Virus record (IMG/VR): IMGVR_UViG_2617270943_000002
Coordinates: 1 to 36,815 of that record
Length of the DNA stretch: 36,815 bases
Strand: one strand, 5' to 3'
Source: a virus
Lineage: Duplodnaviria > Heunggongvirae > Uroviricota > Caudoviricetes
Shown here: in pieces, positions 1,301-36,815 of the stretch
Numbering within the stretch: the first letter of the stretch is position 1
How the letters are laid out: each line of letters opens with the position of its first letter
The notes under the pieces: model-generated
What the model saw: only the letters and a program-made list of their open reading frames with translations
Told to the model about the DNA's origin: nothing
Databases searched by the model: none
Translations under genes and position numbers: made by a program

Positions 1301-1332
1301 GTGATCTTTATCGAATAATACACGAGGTGAAA

Positions 1333-3939
1333 ATGAATAAGTTATTCATAAATCATATCAACGAAAATTATATTCAGATAAGTCATCGTTCATCTTTTAA
1401 TTGCAATACTGAATTGTTTAACGCAACTGTATCAGTTGGTAAGTCGCTTGAGGATTTAATCTGCGCTTGTCGGTCTCTGAGTATAGAAGGTGCGGATGGT
1501 AACAATTTAAGCATTATAACTAGCAGCCTGAAGAAAAAACTAAGAGAGCTTGTTGTTACAAATTTTCCCTTAACAAAAGTCTACCAACAAACAGAATTTG
1601 GTCCTGGAGTAAAACAAGAAGAAATCAACTCATCTTCTATGATAATTCAAATATTTCAATTTTACCTAGGGGCGATATCTAATTGTGATATCATATTACA
1701 TCTCAAATTTTTTGTTGAAAGCCTTTCTATTACGGAGTCATTTGTTGGCAAACCCCCAAAAACTCTTTTACATGAATATTTCCAAAGACATCAACACATA
1801 ATTCCTACATACAAAACCACCTTGGCTGGTGGGACCGAGCATGCACCAATATATGAGTCTGAAATAGCACTTCCTAATGGACAGATATTTATCGGAAGTG
1901 GTGAGAGTAAAAAAAAAGCAGAGAATAATGTTGCCAGTTTAGTTTGCAATCATTTGAATTTGAAAAACAATAAAAAACAAATATTAAAATCTAATAGTAT
2001 TATTTCAGCATGGGGTGGCGTACAGAAACCGAATGTTAAAGAGTGTTACATCAACAATGAATTGAACATGGCTTTTGGTTTTTCAAATAACTTTAATTCA
2101 ATCCAGGCTTTTATACCCCCTAGAATAAAGGGTAAAAATAGATCTATAAGTTCGCACAGAGATCTCGCTACTTTAGGTTCGCATTATATTTCCTTACTAG
2201 CTTCAGTAAGCCTACTTGAGATAATAAAAAATGGACAGAATGTTATTGACAGAACTACGTTAGGGATCATGGTGTTATCTGAAAAAAACTTTATGAGATT
2301 CTATAACTCAGGTTTTATTTCAATAGATTCTCTCCCCTATAAAGGACATCCAGATTATACAACTATATCTTATTATGTAGATTGTATTCAGGCATTGTTT
2401 GGAATGTCTCTTCTAAATCTGATAACTAAAAATAGTAAAATTCAATATAATGAGTTAATTTGCTCTTCCTCTGCAACAAATTGGTTGTACAAAAGAATAA
2501 AAAACTATAATTTGGATGAAGAATCTAATAAAGATATTATACCGACACTGACTTTGCATAGAATGCAAAAATACGGATTTGTATTTAAACTTATAAAAAA
2601 TCTAGATGTATATCAGCTTGAAATAGCTCATATTCGTAATGGGGATAATTTTGTTATCTATGCAGATCCTCTAATTCAAACAAGAAAAGATGCGATGACT
2701 AGGCTTGCGGGAAGTTGCCTTAAAGCATTGGATAGACTTGAAGGTGTGTTTCTCGAACCTCCTAGGTCTGAAGATTCTAAAAAAAATCAAAAAAAATTGA
2801 TTTCATACTTACTTCGTAATATATCAGAAGACAGGCCAGTGGTCTTAAGTGAAGAGCAACTCTCCGTAATATCAAAGAAAAAAAATGAATACGTACAATA
2901 TGACTTTGATATGCTTAAAGAAAAATTCTTGTCACAAGAAATGAATTACCTTGAAGCTTCAGTTATATTATTTTTACTCCACCAAAAATTAATGTTGGTG
3001 GACGACAGCATTGATAATATTTGCTATCTATCGCTACCTATTTGGAGTGATCAAAATTCTCTTGACTACGATAATTTTAATGATTCATCTGCAGATGCAG
3101 ATGCAGATGCAGATAATCATGTAAATATAAATTTTATTCTGGATTCCATTGAAGATTCCCAAGAAAAACAGTATATAAACTATGATAGCGCCGCTAAAGC
3201 CAGCAGTTTGGGTGAGATTTTATCAAGATATGATAGGTTAAATGCAGATTGTTTATCTCAATTATGGGATAAAAGGAAAAGTAGTTTTAAATACATTGAA
3301 GAAGCTGCAATAGTGCTCTCTAAAATTCGTTATGAGCGAGGATTAGATTTTAAGTTAATGAGTTACAAAAATTTTCTATCTACCAGCATGATTAAAGAAC
3401 TTCAACTTCCATCGTTTGATGAAGAAAACTCAAAACCCTTACAAATAAAGTCAGATTTACAGCTTGCAAAAGTAAAAAAACAATCTAAAAAAATATTTAG
3501 TGCTACTGAAAAATTTGATTTTTCAACAGCAGGGAGTTTTAAAATAAATAACTCTGATGAACGAAAGGTTATAAATAGAAACGTCACGATACGTATAGGT
3601 CAAAGCGACTTCAGAAATAAACTGATAAACGTTTGGGGGCAATGTGCCTTTACTGGGTGCAAAACAATAGCAGTACTTGATGCAGCTCATATTTATCCTT
3701 ACAGAGGAGATAAGGATAATCATATAAAAAATGGCTTGTTATTGCGTACTGATATACATCGTCTCTTTGATAACTATCTAATATCTATTGACCCAGCGAC
3801 TTTAAGGATTCACGTAAGTGATATGGTGCGCGATAGGTACTATCAGGAGCTGAATGGTGTCCTATTGAGGGACAAGGTTGGGTTGTCTATGCAAGCTCTA
3901 GAATACCATTGGTTTTATTTTACATCACAGGGTGATTAG
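1333..3939 (+). CDS. Large AT-rich protein with a dsRBD-like region (approx. aa 143-212) and a C-terminal HNH nuclease domain; function unknown, candidate defense nuclease
   Basis: ORF 1327(GTG)/1333(ATG)..3939 with GAGGTG RBS just upstream; dsRBM-like motif PPKTLLHEYFQ...PTYK...GGTEHAPIYESEIALPNGQIFIGSGESKKKAENNVASLV; HNH_2-like motif CAFTGCKTIAVLDAAHIYPYRGDKDNHIKNGLLLRTDIHRLFDNYLISIDP near the C-terminus; codon composition very AT-rich relative to the flanking phage genes. Confidence 0.6.
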   Translation: MNKLFINHINENYIQISHRSSFNCNTELFNATVSVGKSLEDLICACRSLSIEGADGNNLSIITSSLKKKLRELVVTNFPLTKVYQQTEFGPGVKQEEINSSSMIIQIFQFYLGAISNCDIILHLKFFVESLSITESFVGKPPKTLLHEYFQRHQHIIPTYKTTLAGGTEHAPIYESEIALPNGQIFIGSGESKKKAENNVASLVCNHLNLKNNKKQILKSNSIISAWGGVQKPNVKECYINNELNMAFGFSNNFNSIQAFIPPRIKGKNRSISSHRDLATLGSHYISLLASVSLLEIIKNGQNVIDRTTLGIMVLSEKNFMRFYNSGFISIDSLPYKGHPDYTTISYYVDCIQALFGMSLLNLITKNSKIQYNELICSSSATNWLYKRIKNYNLDEESNKDIIPTLTLHRMQKYGFVFKLIKNLDVYQLEIAHIRNGDNFVIYADPLIQTRKDAMTRLAGSCLKALDRLEGVFLEPPRSEDSKKNQKKLISYLLRNISEDRPVVLSEEQLSVISKKKNEYVQYDFDMLKEKFLSQEMNYLEASVILFLLHQKLMLVDDSIDNICYLSLPIWSDQNSLDYDNFNDSSADADADADNHVNINFILDSIEDSQEKQYINYDSAAKASSLGEILSRYDRLNADCLSQLWDKRKSSFKYIEEAAIVLSKIRYERGLDFKLMSYKNFLSTSMIKELQLPSFDEENSKPLQIKSDLQLAKVKKQSKKIFSATEKFDFSTAGSFKINNSDERKVINRNVTIRIGQSDFRNKLINVWGQCAFTGCKTIAVLDAAHIYPYRGDKDNHIKNGLLLRTDIHRLFDNYLISIDPATLRIHVSDMVRDRYYQELNGVLLRDKVGLSMQALEYHWFYFTSQGD
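3091..3114 (+). repeat. Hexanucleotide microsatellite (GCAGAT)x4 inside the 870-aa ORF, encoding ADADADAD
   Basis: gcagatgcagatgcagatgcagat read directly. Confidence 0.9.
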
Positions 3940-12724: not shown

Positions 12725-13720
12725 GTGACCGTGAGAGCACTACTGACCCCTGAAATTGCCCCGCGTATGGGGATCGTATTGTTCAGACCAGGTTCAGAGC
12801 TGATGCCCTTGTTTATGCAGGGGCGTGTCTTGCTGGAGCCTGAGCCGGAACGTTATTCATCTTTCGCCAGTGGTGCCGTTCCGGCGGCATCACAACCGCT
12901 GGCGGATGATCCTGCCGTTCGGGCCGTGTTCCGCAATGAGGCAGTGATCCGTCGTGCTGGTGGCGTGGAATGTCTTGAAAGCTGGTTACTTCGTGAAAAA
13001 GGCTGCCAGTGGCCTCATTCCGACTGGCACAGCGAGAACATGACAACAATGCGACACGCTCCGGGCGCAATCCGTTTGTGCTGGCACTGCGATAACCAGC
13101 TGCGCGATCAGTTCACGGAACGGCTGGAATCAATGGCAACGGATAACAGTGCCCGCTGGGTGTTGTCTGTTGTGCGTCGGGATCTCGGTTTTGATGACAG
13201 TCATGTTGTGACAATGCCGGAACTGTGCTGGTGGCTGATTCGTAATGATCTGGCGGATGCCTTACCGGAAAGTGCAGCCCGTAAGGCACTGAGATTACCG
13301 AAGCCTGTTGTGCCGTCTGTTACCCGGGAAAGTGACCTTGTGCCTTCGGTTCCTGCCACCAGCATCATCCAGGATAAGGCGAAAAAGGTGCTGGCGCTGA
13401 AAGTGGATCCGGAGTCGCCGGAGTCTTTTATGTTACGCCCCAAACGTCGCCGCTGGGTTAATGAAAAGTACACGCGATGGGTTAAGACGCAGCCGTGCGC
13501 ATGTTGTGGAAAACCTGCTGATGATCCCCACCACCTGATAGGTCACGGTCAGGGTGGAATGGCTACAAAAGCGCATGACCTCTTTGTGTTGCCTTTGTGC
13601 AGAAAGCATCACGACGAGCTGCATGCGGATACCGTGGCATTTGAAGAGAAGTATGGCTCCCAGCTGGAGCTGATATTTCGTTTTATCGATCGTGCACTGG
13701 CAATTGGCGTGCTGGCCTGA
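12725..13720 (+). CDS. DUF968-like protein with C-terminal HNH-type zinc-finger motif (331 aa; start uncertain)
   Basis: C-terminal CACCGKPADDPHHLIGHGQGG...CRKHHDELH; possible starts at GTG 12725/12731 or ATG 12767. Confidence 0.55.
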   Translation: MTVRALLTPEIAPRMGIVLFRPGSELMPLFMQGRVLLEPEPERYSSFASGAVPAASQPLADDPAVRAVFRNEAVIRRAGGVECLESWLLREKGCQWPHSDWHSENMTTMRHAPGAIRLCWHCDNQLRDQFTERLESMATDNSARWVLSVVRRDLGFDDSHVVTMPELCWWLIRNDLADALPESAARKALRLPKPVVPSVTRESDLVPSVPATSIIQDKAKKVLALKVDPESPESFMLRPKRRRWVNEKYTRWVKTQPCACCGKPADDPHHLIGHGQGGMATKAHDLFVLPLCRKHHDELHADTVAFEEKYGSQLELIFRFIDRALAIGVLA

Positions 13721-13737
13721 TTTTGTGGAGAAAGTTG

Positions 13738-14079
13738 ATGCGTGATATGTATGAAGTATTGGACCGCTGGGGTGCATGGGCTGCAGCAGATAACAGTGGT
13801 GTGGACTGGCAGCCTGTTGCTGCAGGGTTTAAAGGTTTACTACCTCATGGAAAGAAAACACGCCAACAATGCGATGATGATGAAGGAATCATGATTGACA
13901 GCTGTGTTGCGCGATTGCGGAAATATAAGCCCGAAGAGTATGAGTTGGTTATTGCTCATTTTGTTATCGGCATCTCACTAAGAACTATTGCAAAGAAGCA
14001 GAAGTGTTCTGATGGGACAATAAGAAAAGAGTTGCAAACAGCTCTTGGTTTTCTGGATGGTGTGCTTTCAATGTTGTAA
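13738..14079 (+). CDS. Q: Late-gene antitermination protein Q-like (113 aa)
   Basis: ATG 13738 with GGAGAAAG RBS; small protein at the canonical position upstream of the lysis region. Confidence 0.6.
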   Translation: MRDMYEVLDRWGAWAAADNSGVDWQPVAAGFKGLLPHGKKTRQQCDDDEGIMIDSCVARLRKYKPEEYELVIAHFVIGISLRTIAKKQKCSDGTIRKELQTALGFLDGVLSML

Positions 14080-14084
14080 TATTA

Positions 14085-14108
14085 GGGGGAATTACCCCCC
14101 TTTTTTTC
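14085..14108 (+). terminator. Hairpin plus T-run immediately after Q (GGGGG-AATTA-CCCCCC-TTTTTTT); overlaps the 3' end of the convergent membrane-protein gene
   Basis: Perfect G5/C5-6 stem with a 7-T run read directly. Confidence 0.55.
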
Positions 14109-14640
14109 TCTGTTGCTTTAATAAAATTTTAATGTTTTGTCTGATTATGATGAGGCAATGTAATAAAAGAAATACCGTTAGTATTGCAAGCCATACGCAA
14201 AATAAGCATGCATATAAATTAGTTGAAAGTCCAATAGTGAATTGTGCAATTGCTGTTGTGATAGAACATAATATTGATGTATTAATAAATGAGGATAAAT
14301 TGTCTAAAGGTTTATAAAGTACACTATCATTGATTTTGTCAATAGGTATACCAGTGGCAATGCTATAAATTTCCTTATATTCCTGAGTTGCAAAAACCTT
14401 ATCGCGTAAATTTATTATGACAAAGGTATGCAGGCTCAATAAAAATGAGCCCACGGAAATAAAACCGGAGAAGAGATAGCCTCGTAAGTTTTTATGATAA
14501 AAATCAAAAAAGTTAACACTTACTTTAGGTGTGTTTCTGTACAATAGGTAAAGTGCAAGCAATGCCAGGATCGAGAATGCAAGCAGTGTAAGGTACTGAT
14601 ACCTCAATCTTTTATTTATTAGCCATTCATATAAAGGCAT
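14092..14640 (-). CDS. AT-rich predicted inner-membrane protein with about 4 TM helices (182 aa); function unknown
   Basis: Hydrophobic segments YLTLLAFSILALLALYLLY, LFSGFISVGSFLLSLHTFVIINL, ILCSITTAIAQFTIGL, LYACLFCVWLAILTVFLLLHCLIII; start overlaps the upstream gene by 14 nt. Confidence 0.75.
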   Translation of the reverse strand: MPLYEWLINKRLRYQYLTLLAFSILALLALYLLYRNTPKVSVNFFDFYHKNLRGYLFSGFISVGSFLLSLHTFVIINLRDKVFATQEYKEIYSIATGIPIDKINDSVLYKPLDNLSSFINTSILCSITTAIAQFTIGLSTNLYACLFCVWLAILTVFLLLHCLIIIRQNIKILLKQQRKKGG

Positions 14641-15553
14641 TTTTATTCGTCCCGTTCAGCATTTCTTCTTTTATCATATCAAAAACAGGGTTTGTTGTAT
14701 AATTATCGTTTGTCAATCCATTGACTTTATCGGCAATTATATCGAAATCGTATGTTTCAAAAAAAACAGGGCAGTTCATAAAATCAATGGTTTTTTCTAT
14801 TCCTGCATGGTTTACTGCAATAACCTGTGCTTTAGCAACTCCACTCATAGAATTATAAATATTTGAAAGATTCTGAGATAGTTGTTGCACTTTTGTTCTG
14901 TCGCTAGAATTAAAATTCATATCTATTGTGGTAGTGTTAACAAATTGTTCAAGCGCAGTCATTGGTCCACCTTTAAAATCTATATAATTAAATTTAAAGC
15001 TTGTGCTTTTAATCTCTTTGAATTGACATAAAACACTCTGAATGTTGTTTTTATTTGTCATAAGGCTGAAAGTCAGTCTTTCTTTGTATTTTTTATTTAT
15101 TGCAGTTACTTCTTTTTGTTTTGGTTTATCACCAAGTTTTTTTATTTCTTCTTTATTTTGATTTCTGATAAATTCATTACTTATTGTTTCTAAATGAGAA
15201 AAGAGAGTGTTCAGACTGCATGACCCGTGGTGATACATATAGAGACCAGAAAGATTAGATTTTTTAATTAAGAAAAAGTTGAAATTAGCAAGTTTGTCAC
15301 TTCCTTGAAGATCTTCAATTTTAAGCTGGAATTTACCATCAACAAATTGCGACTTACAGTTCTTTTTTTGGTTTCTGAATGTGACAACTAATCCATAATA
15401 GAAATCATTCACATCCGAAATGAGAATTTTACGAGTATAGTCTGTGCGACTGTGTTCTCTGTTTGATGCGTTGATAAAAGCATTCATTACGTCAACGGTA
15501 TTAATATTTTTGTTATTGTTATTTATTGTAAATCCTATGCTTCTAACTTTCAT
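14627..15553 (-). CDS. AT-rich soluble protein (308 aa), no recognisable family; upstream partner of the membrane protein
   Basis: Long uninterrupted ORF, N/K-rich, in a low-GC island embedded in a high-GC phage backbone; translationally coupled to the downstream TM gene. Confidence 0.75.
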   Translation of the reverse strand: MKVRSIGFTINNNNKNINTVDVMNAFINASNREHSRTDYTRKILISDVNDFYYGLVVTFRNQKKNCKSQFVDGKFQLKIEDLQGSDKLANFNFFLIKKSNLSGLYMYHHGSCSLNTLFSHLETISNEFIRNQNKEEIKKLGDKPKQKEVTAINKKYKERLTFSLMTNKNNIQSVLCQFKEIKSTSFKFNYIDFKGGPMTALEQFVNTTTIDMNFNSSDRTKVQQLSQNLSNIYNSMSGVAKAQVIAVNHAGIEKTIDFMNCPVFFETYDFDIIADKVNGLTNDNYTTNPVFDMIKEEMLNGTNKNAFI

Positions 15554-15817
15554 GTGTATTCCAGGACCGACTAAAGTTAGCGAGAATGGGGACGCATAGT
15601 TTATAAAAATCCTAACGCGTACGCAAAAAGTATTATATCGTGTTAAGAGTGGTTACTTCGCCACACAACTTAAACCCGCCGCTGAGCGGTTTTTTTGTAC
15701 CTGTAAACCTTGTGCAGTACAGTAAACACGCTGGTGGTCGTGAATACTGGCTTTTTATCTTGCTGGCTTTTTAGACAAGAGTTATTGGTATGTCATGTTA
15801 ACCAGAAGGGAAAAGAC

Positions 15818-16021
15818 ATGCTAAAACAGCAAGATATGACAGAAACCGCCGCCGCAGTCCTTCATTTCTTACCTGCTGACAAGTGGGTAACGCCACGCAT
15901 GATGACGAGAACTACCGGAGTAAGCGAAGCCAGGTGCCAGTTAATACTGACTCAGTTAGTTCTGGCGGGTCTGGCGAAGGATAACGGCGGGTACGGGAAT
16001 AAATTCAGACGCTGCCAGTAA
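15818..16021 (+). CDS. Small putative winged-helix DNA-binding protein (67 aa)
   Basis: ATG 15818 (MLKQQDMTETAAAVLHFLPADKWVTPRMMTRTTGVSEARCQLILTQLVLAGLAKDNG...); tentative. Confidence 0.3.
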   Translation: MLKQQDMTETAAAVLHFLPADKWVTPRMMTRTTGVSEARCQLILTQLVLAGLAKDNGGYGNKFRRCQ

Positions 16022-16171
16022 TGGCGGTTTCCTGCTGTGAAAATGGGCGGCTGGTGGGTGTTGGTAGCACCTGCCAGCCATTCGCTCATGCTTACTGGTC
16101 ACAAGCGAACCACGGCCCACTGCTTTAGCGCAAAAGCAGAGTGAGCCTACCAGAGTTACGCTTACTGATCC

Positions 16172-17224
16172 ATGAAAAATACTGTAAAAATAAACAGTGT
16201 TGATTTAATCAACGCTGATTGCCTGCATTTTATTCAGTCCCTGCCTGATGATTCCATTGACCTGATTGTTACCGATCCGCCTTACTTCAAGGTGAAACCT
16301 AACGGTTGGGACAATCAGTGGAAAGGGGACGAAGATTACCTTAAGTGGCTGGACCACTGTCTGGCCCAGTTCTGGCGGGTGTTAAAACCTGCCGGAAGCC
16401 TTTACCTGTTCTGTGGGCATCGCCTGGCATCTGATATTGAGATCATGATGCGTGAACGTTTCAACGTGCTTAACCATATCATCTGGGCGAAGCCGTCCGG
16501 ACGTTGGAATGGGTGTAATAAAGAAAGTCTGCGCGCATATTTTCCTGCCACAGAGCGCGTTCTGTTTGCTGAACATTACCAGGGGCCATATCGCGGCAAA
16601 AGTGACGGCTATGCGGCAAAAGAAAGGGAACTCAAACAGCACATAATGGCACCGCTGATATCGTATTTCAGGGATGCTCGTGCCGAACTAGGGATAACGG
16701 CAAAACAAATTGCCGAAGCCACAGGTAAGAAAAATATGGTTTCCCACTGGTTTGGTGCCAGTCAGTGGCAGTTGCCGAATGAGGCTGACTATCGGAAGTT
16801 ACAGGCACTGTTTTCCCGTATAGCGGCAGAGAAGTTTCAGGAACAACAACTGGAACAACCACACCACCAGCTGGTGGCGTCTTATGATTCACTGAATCGC
16901 AAATATTCTGAATTGCTGGATGAGTTTAAATCTCTCCGGCGCTATTTCTCCGTATCAGTCTCCGTGCCTTATACCGATGTCTGGATGCATAAACCCGTTC
17001 AGTTCTACCCGGGTAAACATCCGTGTGAGAAACCGGCGGATATGCTCAGGCAAATAATCAATGCCAGTAGTCGACCTGGTGATCTGGTTGCTGATTTTTT
17101 TATGGGATCCGGTTCCACAATAAAAGCAGCAATGGCGCTGGGGCGTCGGGCCTTAGGTGTTGAGCTTGAGTCAGAGCGGTTTAACCAGACAGTGAAAGAG
17201 ATAAACGAGCTGGTGGGGAAATAA
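16172..17224 (+). CDS. DNA methyltransferase (beta-class amino-MTase; DPPY motif precedes FxGxG SAM-binding motif); N6-adenine or N4-cytosine specific
   Basis: IVTDPPYF near the N-terminus and DFFMGSGST near the C-terminus. Confidence 0.8.
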
Positions 17225-17291
17225 TCTGGTGGCCACGTCAGGTGGCCTTTTTATTTCCATTACACAGCACCCGCATCTGCGAGGTGGGGTT

Positions 17292-17507
17292 ATGAAATCC
17301 ATGGATAAGTTAACAACGGGTGTCGCCTATGGCACCTCAGCAGGTAGTGCCGGGTACTGGTTTTTACAGTTGCTCGATAAAGTCACGCCCTCACAGTGGG
17401 CGGCAATAGGTGTGCTGGGTAGTCTGGTATTTGGCCTGCTGACGTACCTGACAAACCTTTATTTCAAGATTAAAGAAGATAAGCGCAAGGCTGCGAGAGG
17501 TGAATAA
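17292..17507 (+). CDS. S: Phage-21-type class II holin (pinholin S21-like)
   Basis: [71 protein letters not shown]; dual-start MKSM motif; RBS GAGGTGGGG. Confidence 0.8.
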
Positions 17508-18004
17508 TGCCTCCATCATTACGAAAAGCAGTTGCTGCTGCTATTGGTGGCGGAGCAATTGCTATAGCATCAGTGTTAATCACTGGCCCAAGTGGTGACG
17601 ATGGCCTGGAAGGTGTCAGCTACATACCATACAAAGATATCGTTGGCGTATGGACTGTATGTCACGGACACACCGGAAAAGACATCATACTCGGTAAAAC
17701 GTATACCGAAGCAGAATGCAAAGCCCTCCTGAATAAAGACCTTGCCACGGTTGCCAGACAAATTAACCCGTACATCAAAGTCGATATACCGGAAACAACG
17801 CGCGGCGCTCTTTACTCGTTCGTCTACAACGTGGGTGCTGGCAATTTCAGAACATCGACGCTTCTTCGCAAAATAAACCAGGGCGATATCAAAGGCGCAT
17901 GTGACCAGCTACGTCGCTGGATATACGCTGGCGGTAAGCAATGGAAAGGCCTGATGACTCGTCGTGAGATTGAGCGTGAAGTCTGTTTGTGGGGGCAGCA
18001 ATGA
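17507..18004 (+). CDS. R: SAR endolysin (T4-lysozyme-like glycosidase with N-terminal signal-anchor-release domain)
   Basis: Gly/Ala-rich weakly hydrophobic N-terminus [20 protein letters not shown] followed by an E...D...T catalytic arrangement ([20 protein letters not shown]); start overlaps the holin stop (TAATG). Confidence 0.8.
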
Positions 18005-18444
18005 GCAGAGTAACCGCGATTATCTCCGCTCTGATTATCTGCATCATCGTCTGCCTGTTATGGGCTGTTAATCATTACCGTGATAACGCCATCGCCTACA
18101 AAGAGCAGCGCGACAAAGCCGCATCCACTATCGCTGATATGCAGAAGCGTCAACGTGATGTAGCAGAACTCGACGCCAGATACACAAAGGAGCTTGCTGA
18201 TGCTAACGCGACTATCGAAAGTCTTCGTGCTGATGTTTCTGCTGGGCGTAAGTGGCTGCGCGTCAAAGCTGTCTGTCCAGACATGCATAAAATCACCGCC
18301 GCCTCCGGCGTGGATGATGGCACCAGCCCCAGACTTACTGACACCGCTCAACGGGATTATTTCACCCTTAGAAAGCGGATTGAAACCAGTGATAAAATGA
18401 TCCGAGGCTTGCAGCAATACATTCGCACGCAGTGTGTAAGATGA
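18001..18444 (+). CDS. Rz: Rz-like inner-membrane spanin
   Basis: N-terminal TM segment ([18 protein letters not shown]), coiled-coil-like remainder; ATG overlaps the endolysin stop (ATGA). Confidence 0.75.
18194..18400 (+). CDS. Rz1: Rz1-like outer-membrane lipoprotein spanin embedded in the +1 frame of Rz
   Basis: Signal peptide with lipobox (LLGVSGC) and a proline-rich mature region ([17 protein letters not shown]); lies entirely within Rz. Confidence 0.7.
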
Positions 18445-18824: not shown

Positions 18825-19145
18825 TTAGATGCATCGACATTTGATGATGCTTGTCAGACCTGTCATTTTCTTTGCTTCATTTTCAACATTGAGGAAGTTG
18901 GTTGAGCATATTTTTTGATAATCTCCAGTTGTGAATCCTGTTTTATCGATCTTGCGTTTCAAGGGATTAATCGTTTTGCAAGATGCTCTATGGATTCTGG
19001 TAAAGCGTTCGTCAGATTTATTACCTTTACCTCTGGTTCGCTTCAATGCATTGACAACATATCCGTCTGGATTATCGCCAAGCCAATTACGATAGTCTGA
19101 TTCACTCTCAGTCTGAAGGTCACTTCTGAATACCTTTATGGACAT
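18825..19145 (-). CDS. Hypothetical protein between the lysis cassette and cos (106 aa)
   Basis: ATG at 19145 preceded by AGGAG; no family recognised; opposite strand to flanking late genes, like a moron. Confidence 0.5.
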   Translation of the reverse strand: MSIKVFRSDLQTESESDYRNWLGDNPDGYVVNALKRTRGKGNKSDERFTRIHRASCKTINPLKRKIDKTGFTTGDYQKICSTNFLNVENEAKKMTGLTSIIKCRCI

Positions 19146-19289
19146 GAAGATACTCCTGTGCATTTATGGTACGAAGAAATAGCAAAAGTATTTTTACCGT
19201 AAATTGCGAATCTACAAAAGCAAAACAATGCGTAATATCAGAGTGAATATTCTGCCTTTAATGTGGGTCCTTCTGATGACCTGAGCTCT

Positions 19290-36231: not shown

Positions 36232-36815
36232 TGGCATTCAGAATGAGTGAACAACCACGGACCATAAAAATTTATAATCTGCTGGCCGGAACTAATGAAT
36301 TTATTGGTGAAGGTGACGCATATATTCCGCCTCATACAGGTCTGCCAGCAAACAGTACCGATATTGCACCGCCAGATATTCCGGCTGGCTTCGTGGCTGT
36401 TTTCAACAGTGATGAGTCATCGTGGCATCTCGTTGAAGATCATCGGGGTAAAACGGTTTATGACGTGGCTTCCGGCAACGCGTTATTTATTTCTGAACTC
36501 GGTCCGTTACCGGAAAATGTTACTTGGTTATCGCCGGAAGGGGAGTTTCAGAAGTGGAACGGCACAGCCTGGGTGAAAGATGCAGAAGCAGAAAAACTAT
36601 TCCGGATCCGGGAGGCGGAAGAAACAAAAAACAGCCTGATGCAGGTAGCCAGTGAGCATATAGCGCCACTTCAGGATGCTGTAGATCTGGAGATCGCAAC
36701 GGAGGAAGAAACCTCATTGCTGGAAGCCTGGAAAAAATATCGGGTGTTGCTGAACCGTGTTAATACAACAACTGCACCGGATATTGAATGGCCAACAGTA
36801 CCCATTATCGAATAG
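36231..36815 (+). CDS. tfa: Tail fibre assembly protein Tfa
   Basis: 194 aa, lambda Tfa-like ([58 protein letters not shown]...); start overlaps the stf stop. Confidence 0.9.

Follow-up and report, generated by a model that had tools for sequence, protein, structure and literature searches.

Results

A methyltransferase gene of the M.EcoGII family

The window analyzed here, a 36,815-nt stretch of viral DNA (IMG/VR record IMGVR_UViG_2617270943_000002, Caudoviricetes), is a lambdoid E. coli prophage, and our subject is the DNA methyltransferase gene at positions 16172–17224 together with the leader RNA in front of it. The genes of the window run from the integrase through early and lysogeny genes and the nin region to the antiterminator gene Q and two low-GC minus-strand genes, followed by a small open reading frame (ORF), the methyltransferase, an S21-type holin, lysozyme and Rz genes, and a lambda-type terminase with the structural genes (Table 1). 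The start of the holin lies 67 nt downstream of the methyltransferase stop, and the original prediction for this locus, made from the DNA letters, was correct in placing the two genes side by side. A near-identical prophage, integrated beside yjjG, is carried by strain MB56.

The methyltransferase matches the N6_N4_Mtase profile (PF01555) with an E value of 2.2e-42 and 145.9 bits (cutoff 26.7), covering positions 1–220 of the 221 in the profile. The DPPY motif (residues 35–38, positions 16274–16285) precedes the FxGxG motif, here FMGSG (residues 310–314, positions 17099–17113), and the protein has a central target-recognition region; this arrangement and the profile score place it among the beta-class amino-methyltransferases, as had been predicted. 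Its best solved relatives, M.RsrI, M1.MboII, CcrM and DpnA, are also beta-class enzymes.

The gene had been described as an orphan. It is indeed solitary, but it is not an uncharacterized orphan, since it almost certainly belongs to the M.EcoGII family. With identities to M.EcoGII and to the resurrected ancestors of the family approximate to ~1%, because these sequences came from optical character recognition (OCR) of Supplementary Table S1 of the SUPREM paper (PMC11551740), the window protein is 80.7% identical to M.EcoGII over its full length (281 of 348 residues, E value 0.0; 350 versus 349 aa), 77% identical within the central insert, which aligns with the M.EcoGII target-recognition region (residues 160–237), 89.6% identical to Anc291, and 71% identical to Anc284/SUPREM. 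Anc291 is nearer to the window protein than to M.EcoGII (84.3%). Protein p25 of Serratia phage OS31 is 64% identical to the window protein and lies at the same distance from M.EcoGII. The placement of the window protein among the non-specific members of the family was made from pairwise identities only.

Close relatives are abundant. The protein of phage Ayreon is 100% identical to the window methyltransferase, and the gene shares 97–99% nucleotide identity with those of phages cdtI, mEp460, vB_EcoS-569R4 and SfV. Of 5426 complete E. coli genomes, 1635 contain a 1.7-kb module that includes the gene (15554–17300), and 1057 of these cover at least 80% of the module. The methyltransferase itself is thus an ordinary member of a known and common family of prophage anti-restriction enzymes. 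In 933W-like Stx2a phages, a remnant encoding only the C-terminal 50 aa of a methyltransferase lies between pR′/tR′ and the tRNA–stx2 genes (PA2 locus L015, 1131–1283, corresponding to window positions 17123–17193), and in phage Stx2a_WGPS2 a complete cassette of winged-helix gene, leader and methyltransferase lies ahead of the tRNAs and stx2; stx cargo is therefore found directly downstream of the cassette.

What is known of relatives bears on specificity. M.EcoGII, from an O104:H4 prophage, is a characterized non-specific adenine methyltransferase that modifies up to 99% of dA in any context (PMC5778455), and its substrates also include single-stranded DNA (ssDNA), RNA and RNA:DNA hybrids (PMC5778455; PMC11551740). 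Each of the resurrected ancestors acted on both DNA and RNA, with no sequence motif on RNA for Anc291 and SUPREM (PMC11551740). Plasmid DNA from cells expressing OS31 p25 was partly resistant to HinfI, PfeI, SchI, Hin1II, Tru1I and TasI, six m6A-sensitive enzymes that cut at different sites, and p25 also renders DNA MboI-resistant and DpnI-sensitive (PMC7556043). The listing for homologues in O111 Shiga-toxin-producing E. coli is “nonspecific”, no motif being detectable in lysogen methylomes (PMC6602927). Since the window allele is bracketed by enzymes shown to be non-specific (M.EcoGII, the ancestors and OS31 p25), it would be expected to methylate adenine with little or no sequence specificity, and there is probably no target motif to find.

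A structured leader RNA ends at the methyltransferase start

The 150-nt intergenic stretch upstream of the methyltransferase is conserved in its nucleotides even though the proteins compared are only 49–64% identical. RNAalifold predicted six helices (P1–P6) from 12 sequences, and a covariance model built from these helices has one match in the window (16038–16177, 141.8 bits, E value 3e-30). Across 47 sources the model has 37 matches, each of them on the sense strand with its end at a methyltransferase start, and none in PA2 or in a Stx1 phage, both of which lack the gene. It also caught N15-like loci that a nucleotide profile (nhmmer) missed. Rfam 15 contains nothing that reaches the gathering threshold at the leader; at E values up to 10, the region 15950–16260 gave two chance-level matches on the other strand.

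Pairing statistics were calculated on a covariance-model-guided alignment of 35 distinct sequences. In this alignment 89.5% of cells are paired, compared with 32–45% when partners are slid and 74% in shuffles, and compensatory double changes occur in 24 of the 35 pairs; none of 500 shuffles reached the observed values. Because such an alignment leans toward the model, we added two independent checks. Folded alone, the P2 segment forms a hairpin in 34 of 34 leaders, representing 33 distinct sequences, with a mean z of −4.6. A search of 185,579 species genomes with a pattern that used only the invariant single-stranded islands returned 50 matches, 48 of them upstream of a methyltransferase of this family, whose start lies 18–21 nt downstream on the same strand (20 nt in 46). 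Covariation supports a structured RNA in the leader. When 28 diverse leaders were aligned with MAFFT alone, RNAalifold found only 15 pairs because the variable P2 stem was misaligned, and that alignment was set aside.

The start region takes part in the structure. Compensatory changes are present in four of the five P3 pairs, and in OS31-type leaders the AUG falls within the 3′ strand of P3. P4 spans the place expected for a ribosome-binding site; no good Shine-Dalgarno sequence is present. A two-state switch, in which the 3′ strand of P1 would pair with the 5′ strand of P4, was considered and is weakly supported (68.6% of cells paired, two pairs often broken), and a possible UGGGC/GCCUA pseudoknot is uninformative because it is invariant. 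We also observed that GATC is nearly invariant in both strands of P3; GAUC pairs with itself, and at the DNA level two Dam sites therefore flank the leader. Dam sites matter at the Mu mom promoter, and these two may do so as well.

A winged-helix gene often lies upstream

The small ORF upstream of the leader encodes 67 aa and has no match in Pfam, NCBIfam or PADLOC; a search of PDB with a profile of the winged-helix alignment gave chance matches only. [quoted passage not shown] Foldseek matched this model to winged-helix domains only: those of TrmBL2, Zalpha (template modeling score, TM, 0.82–0.84), IclR, MarR and the SelB RNA-binding domain. The predicted structure thus supports the winged-helix assignment that had been made from the sequence. 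The invariant residues C40–T45 lie within predicted helix 3.

The linkage between this ORF and the methyltransferase is frequent. Among near-identical IMG/VR loci, the ORF lies ~150 nt upstream of the methyltransferase in 78 of 79, as two alleles that are ~50% identical. Of 40 diverged methyltransferase clusters (54–74% identity), 21 have the ORF upstream as well, and so do 29 of the 50 genome matches of the leader-pattern scan. In phage YDC107_1, the ORF at the equivalent place is a distant homologue of the winged-helix protein (hhalign probability 86%), and none is detectable upstream of the methyltransferase in OS31 or Vibrio phage MAR. The linkage appears to be undescribed: an incomplete search found no description of it, or of the leader, in the searchable literature.

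The cassette lies between a pR′/tR′-like element and the lysis genes

In lambdoid phages, pR′ and tR′ are located directly after Q. The window Q shares 44–46% identity with its counterparts in 933W-like Stx2a phages, and positions 15635–15701 are 82% identical, U-tract hairpin included, to the 67 nt right behind the Q stop of the 933W-like phage PA2. The segment 15602–15700, which we regard as the putative late promoter region and start of the late operon, is kept in 363 phage records; 402 records carry this Q family. In phage Ayreon, which has an unrelated Q, homology to the window begins at 15673, at the tR′-like hairpin, and continues through the methyltransferase into Rz, which places the cassette downstream of the pR′/tR′-like element and upstream of the lysis genes. 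The assignment of the gene to the late region therefore holds. Homologues at 50–64% identity directly precede lysis genes in Serratia phage OS31, the N15-like phage YDC107_1 and Vibrio phage MAR, a relative of VHML.

The gap between the methyltransferase and the holin contains a terminator-like hairpin, and the annotation of phage Ayreon has a terminator at the matching site. Q-dependent late expression, just before packaging and lysis, is well supported by position, and late methylation of progeny DNA before packaging is likely since the gene sits between the pR′/tR′-like element and the lysis genes with terminators on both sides. As to silence in the lysogen, the location in a prophage and the place behind the tR′-like terminator are what is observed.

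No partner nuclease

Pfam, NCBIfam and PADLOC identified no restriction endonuclease beside the methyltransferase, whose neighbors are the winged-helix ORF, the RexA-like/membrane-protein pair, Q and the holin; the absence of a cognate endonuclease nearby had been noted originally. An adjacent, co-inherited endonuclease, as in a Type II restriction-modification system, was thus not found.

A paired endonuclease elsewhere would have told against the original prediction, and the window does contain two HNH proteins. One, a DUF968/HNHc_6 protein, is the product of a standard lambdoid nin-region gene that is also found in phages with other cargo. The other, an 870-aa protein encoded beside the integrase, has a double-stranded RNA (dsRNA)-binding motif (residues 144–210) and a C-terminal HNH_2 domain, with no annotation for the central 500 aa. 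The HNH_2 domain is restriction-enzyme-like, matching the PADLOC Type II HNH model and PDB 6yex and, weakly, an NCBIfam model for a phosphorothioated-DNA restriction endonuclease. However, only 18 of the 5426 complete E. coli genomes carry this gene, compared with 1057–1635 for the methyltransferase module; it has a foreign GC content (32–35%), lies 12 kb from the methyltransferase, and is split by a frameshift in the near-identical MB56 prophage. Because its distribution is mismatched, with co-occurrence in only 18 of more than 1000 genomes, we rejected it as the cognate partner. The methyltransferase is not part of a restriction-modification system.

Other features of the prophage

The two minus-strand genes between Q and the pR′-like element have no match in Pfam, NCBIfam or PADLOC. 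The stretch they occupy (14080–15600) holds minus-strand cassettes that differ between phages (also at loci L004, 1084–2647; L005, 840–2947; and L006, 2136–3587), examples being a 179- plus 343-aa pair, a trio of 220, 130 and 350 aa, and a 483-aa AAA_15/21/23 ATPase. This gap looks like a hot-spot for defense cargo. At 14084–14101, 5 nt past the Q stop and touching the stop of the convergent minus-strand gene, is a strong G6/C6 hairpin with a U-tract, which may terminate the early operon before the inserted cassette is reached.

Two further observations concern the right part of the window. IS009 (RF02111), in the tail-fiber region at 36574–36772 on the plus strand (223.8 bits), is the only Rfam match in the window at the gathering threshold. 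A 112-aa ORF on the minus strand (18825–19163), where an AT-richer stretch separates Rz from the small terminase gene, has no match in Pfam, PHROGs, NCBIfam or PADLOC.

Table 1. Positions of the methyltransferase cassette and of other features in the window
Feature	Position	Strand	Basis or remark
M.EcoGII-family beta-class N6-adenine methyltransferase (predicted), 350 aa	16172 (ATG)–17224 (stop)	+	PF01555, DPPY/FMGSG, homology
Structured 5′ leader of the methyltransferase mRNA, ~130 nt (16043–16171)	16038–16177	+	Covariance model
P1	16043–16047/16085–16089	+	Leader helix
P2	16049–16062/16066–16079	+	Leader helix
P3	16096–16100/16167–16171	+	Leader helix; adjoins AUG at 16172
P4	16103–16105/16161–16163	+	Leader helix
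P5	16114–16116/16145–16147	+	Leader helix
P6	16121–16125/16134–16138	+	Leader helix
Stand-alone winged-helix protein (predicted), 67 aa, phrog_331; first gene of the putative late operon	15818–16021	+	Predicted structure
Putative pR′ region and tR′-like hairpin (15678–15696)	15602–15700	+	Homology; hairpin and U7 tract
Intrinsic-terminator-like hairpin (17231–17247) and U-tract	17231–17255	+	GGCCACGUCAGGUGGCC then UUUUUAUUU; −12.2 kcal/mol, z −2.6
Holin, S21-type	17292–17507	+	PF04971, E value 2e-35
Lysozyme	17507–18004	+	PF00959
Rz	17989–18444	+	PF03245
Q antiterminator, short Q933W-related type	13723–14079	+	PF06530, E value 2.5e-45; PGAP start 13738
RexA-like/membrane-protein pair	14092–15553	−	Low GC
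DUF968/HNHc_6 protein	12725–13720		Standard lambdoid nin-region gene
870-aa protein with dsRNA-binding and HNH_2 domains	1327–3939	+	Beside integrase

Discussion

We consider it probable that the window carries an M.EcoGII-type, non-specific, late-expressed anti-restriction enzyme with a gated leader. The parts of this reading differ in strength. What the analysis itself shows is the family of the enzyme, the order of the genes, the conservation and the fold of the RNA. A non-specific, late, anti-restriction function is very likely, judging from the sequence, whereas a role for the leader as a translational gate on a toxic enzyme, although the most economical view of it, is a tentative suggestion to which we give slightly less than an even chance. 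The reading agrees with the published view that enzymes of this kind protect progeny DNA and stay off in lysogens (PMC5778455; PMC12707154). M.EcoGII is off in its own lysogen, and its constitutive expression slows growth (PMC5778455); more generally, M.EcoGI/II are quiet in lysogens and harmful once expressed (PMC5778455; PMC6602927).

How might the cassette work? In the lysogen, where Q protein would be absent and a terminator lies upstream, the cassette would be silent, sparing the cell toxic genome-wide methylation. After induction, Q-modified RNA polymerase would pass the terminators, and the enzyme would be made late, during phage DNA replication and packaging, adding N6-methyl groups to adenines with S-adenosylmethionine (SAM) as donor. 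Progeny genomes would then exit partly adenine-methylated in all contexts, which could leave the next host less able to restrict them through adenine-sensitive systems of Types I, II and III. The leader may provide a second layer of control by gating translation; what opens it could be the co-transcribed winged-helix protein, processing by an RNase, or the methyltransferase.

Several points weigh against this reading. The role of this allele is deduced from its relatives, its sequence and its position, with identities subject to the OCR error given above. M.PflMI, the nearest relative with confirmed site specificity, falls in the same sequence cluster in the SUPREM study (PMC11551740), and specificity can therefore shift within the wider family. 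No sigma-70 consensus turned up when the presumed pR′ was scanned for promoters, so that its assignment depends on homology with the stretch behind Q in 933W-like phages. For a terminator to stand between two genes of one operon, here the methyltransferase and the holin, is unusual and could mean that they are partly separately regulated. P3 and P4, which involve the start region, are the least supported helices of the leader (79% and 72% of cells paired), and the structural alignment was fitted to the model. Finally, since the winged-helix gene is missing at 21 of the 50 genome matches, its product is not an obligatory activator.

What does the leader do? The proposal that we put forward, a little more cautiously than gating itself, is that it represents an undescribed class of cis-regulatory RNA for M.EcoGII-family genes, extending from E. 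coli lambdoid phages to N15-like and VHML-like phages, which would hold translation until a late signal. The winged-helix protein, whose invariant segment is the predicted recognition helix, is a possible trans partner; it is also possible that the leader senses SAM, S-adenosylhomocysteine (SAH) or the enzyme. Alternatively, rather than gating translation, the leader may serve in RNase III processing or in stability, may be bound by the methyltransferase or by a host factor, or may act at the DNA level. Every leader has a P1 plus P2 stack of ~20 bp that is nearly perfect, the GATC tetramers of P3 are almost invariant, and the preference for the sense strand is modest (89.5% versus 84.6% of cells paired), all of which would suit such functions. 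However, P2 is free to vary in sequence (33 distinct versions) while its pairing is kept, and P1 varies only through G-U wobble, which argues for RNA rather than a protein-binding DNA palindrome, and the 3′ strand of P3 always adjoins or contains the AUG. We regard the alternative as rather unlikely, but it is the strongest that we weighed.

With respect to the enzyme, one possibility is that its true substrate is RNA or ssDNA rather than duplex phage DNA; for example, transcripts might be methylated late to alter translation or to evade RNA-sensing defenses. That M.EcoGII and the ancestors methylate ssDNA, RNA and RNA:DNA hybrids would fit this idea, as would the elaborate RNA leader of the gene itself. 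It is nonetheless improbable, as the activity of M.EcoGII on RNA is ~100-fold below that on DNA (V0 0.12 versus 11.1) and the conserved place of the gene, right before lysis and packaging, fits DNA modification.

Another possibility, which we consider slightly less probable still, is that the enzyme is an orphan methyltransferase with sequence specificity and marks a defined motif in the lysogen chromosome, with epigenetic effect. Solitary methyltransferases such as Dam and CcrM do so, and the specificity of the window allele is judged from relatives only, with the site-specific M.PflMI in the wider cluster. Against this stand the 81% identity to M.EcoGII and the non-specific enzymes that bracket the allele, the silence of its homologues in lysogens, which have no associated motif, and the place of the gene in the late operon behind a tR′-like terminator and with an occluded start region. 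Thus, of the two roles offered in the original prediction, anti-restriction is probable, in keeping with the family and the late place of the gene, and an epigenetic role is unlikely.

The idea that the methyltransferase supplies the modification in a restriction-modification or self-protection pair whose genes are split, with the 870-aa HNH_2 protein or the DUF968/HNHc_6 protein as nuclease, draws on the HNH motifs of both candidates and on the resemblance of HNH_2 to restriction enzymes, but has next to nothing left in its favor, given the rarity, distance, foreign GC content and frameshift of the former, the ordinary nin-region nature of the latter, and the fact that a non-specific methyltransferase cannot set a cognate site.

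These considerations affect how the enzyme would best be studied. The comparison of lysogen and cured-strain methylomes proposed originally would most likely show nothing, given that homologous enzymes are off in their lysogens and that this gene has upstream of it a terminator and a leader in which the start region is paired. The informative sample is virion DNA after induction, in which no motif is expected. As the M.EcoGII family is already characterized, and is sold as a chromatin-footprinting reagent, another copy adds little. What appears to be new is the leader RNA, conserved before essentially every family member that we examined, together with the winged-helix gene that often accompanies it. 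If gating proves true, it would account for the ability of phages to carry an enzyme harmful to the cell and would add a new class of regulatory RNA. The leader could also matter to anyone who expresses M.EcoGII-type enzymes from native sequence.

Among known systems, the closest is M.EcoGII itself (PMC5778455), which shares the beta-class motif order, a near-equal length and a lambdoid prophage host. A relative of M.EcoGII in phage Stx2a_WGPS2, 93% identical to it, is likewise preceded by this winged-helix ORF and leader. The window gene differs as an allele that is ~19% divergent and is followed by the holin, whereas the gene of the Stx phage is followed by tRNA genes and stx. OS31 p25 and p56 of Aeromonas phage ARM81ld are members of this family whose specificity was shown by experiment to be relaxed (PMC7556043). 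Like the window gene, p25 lies directly upstream of a holin, and the leader RNA is found there at 53 bits; unlike the window, the OS31 locus has no detectable winged-helix ORF, and its start codon is inside P3 rather than just after it.

Less closely related enzymes offer functional parallels. Phage Dam-type orphans, such as P1 Dmt, T4 Dam and the Dam of VT2/933W, are also solitary phage adenine methyltransferases that are thought to act in anti-restriction, but they are GATC-specific and most are of other classes, whereas the family of the window enzyme is non-specific. Relaxed specificity is also said to characterize alpha-class promiscuous adenine methyltransferases, reportedly described by Drozdz et al. 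in 2012. In these enzymes, unlike the window methyltransferase, FxGxG precedes DPPY, and their origin is independent.

Lastly, the com-mom operon of phage Mu encodes a late DNA-modifying enzyme that is toxic and silent in the lysogen, with a small ORF and a start-occluding mRNA structure ahead of it. The resemblance to the window is one of logic only: Mom is not a SAM methyltransferase, Com is a zinc finger, and there is no homology. Where a Com-like zinc-finger opener might be sought, the window has a winged helix, which is lacking at 21 of 50 loci. Mom has been grouped with M.EcoGII (PMC12707154), and in the window, as in Mu, a late and toxic modifier would follow a small ORF and an mRNA structure, here P3, that occludes the start region.

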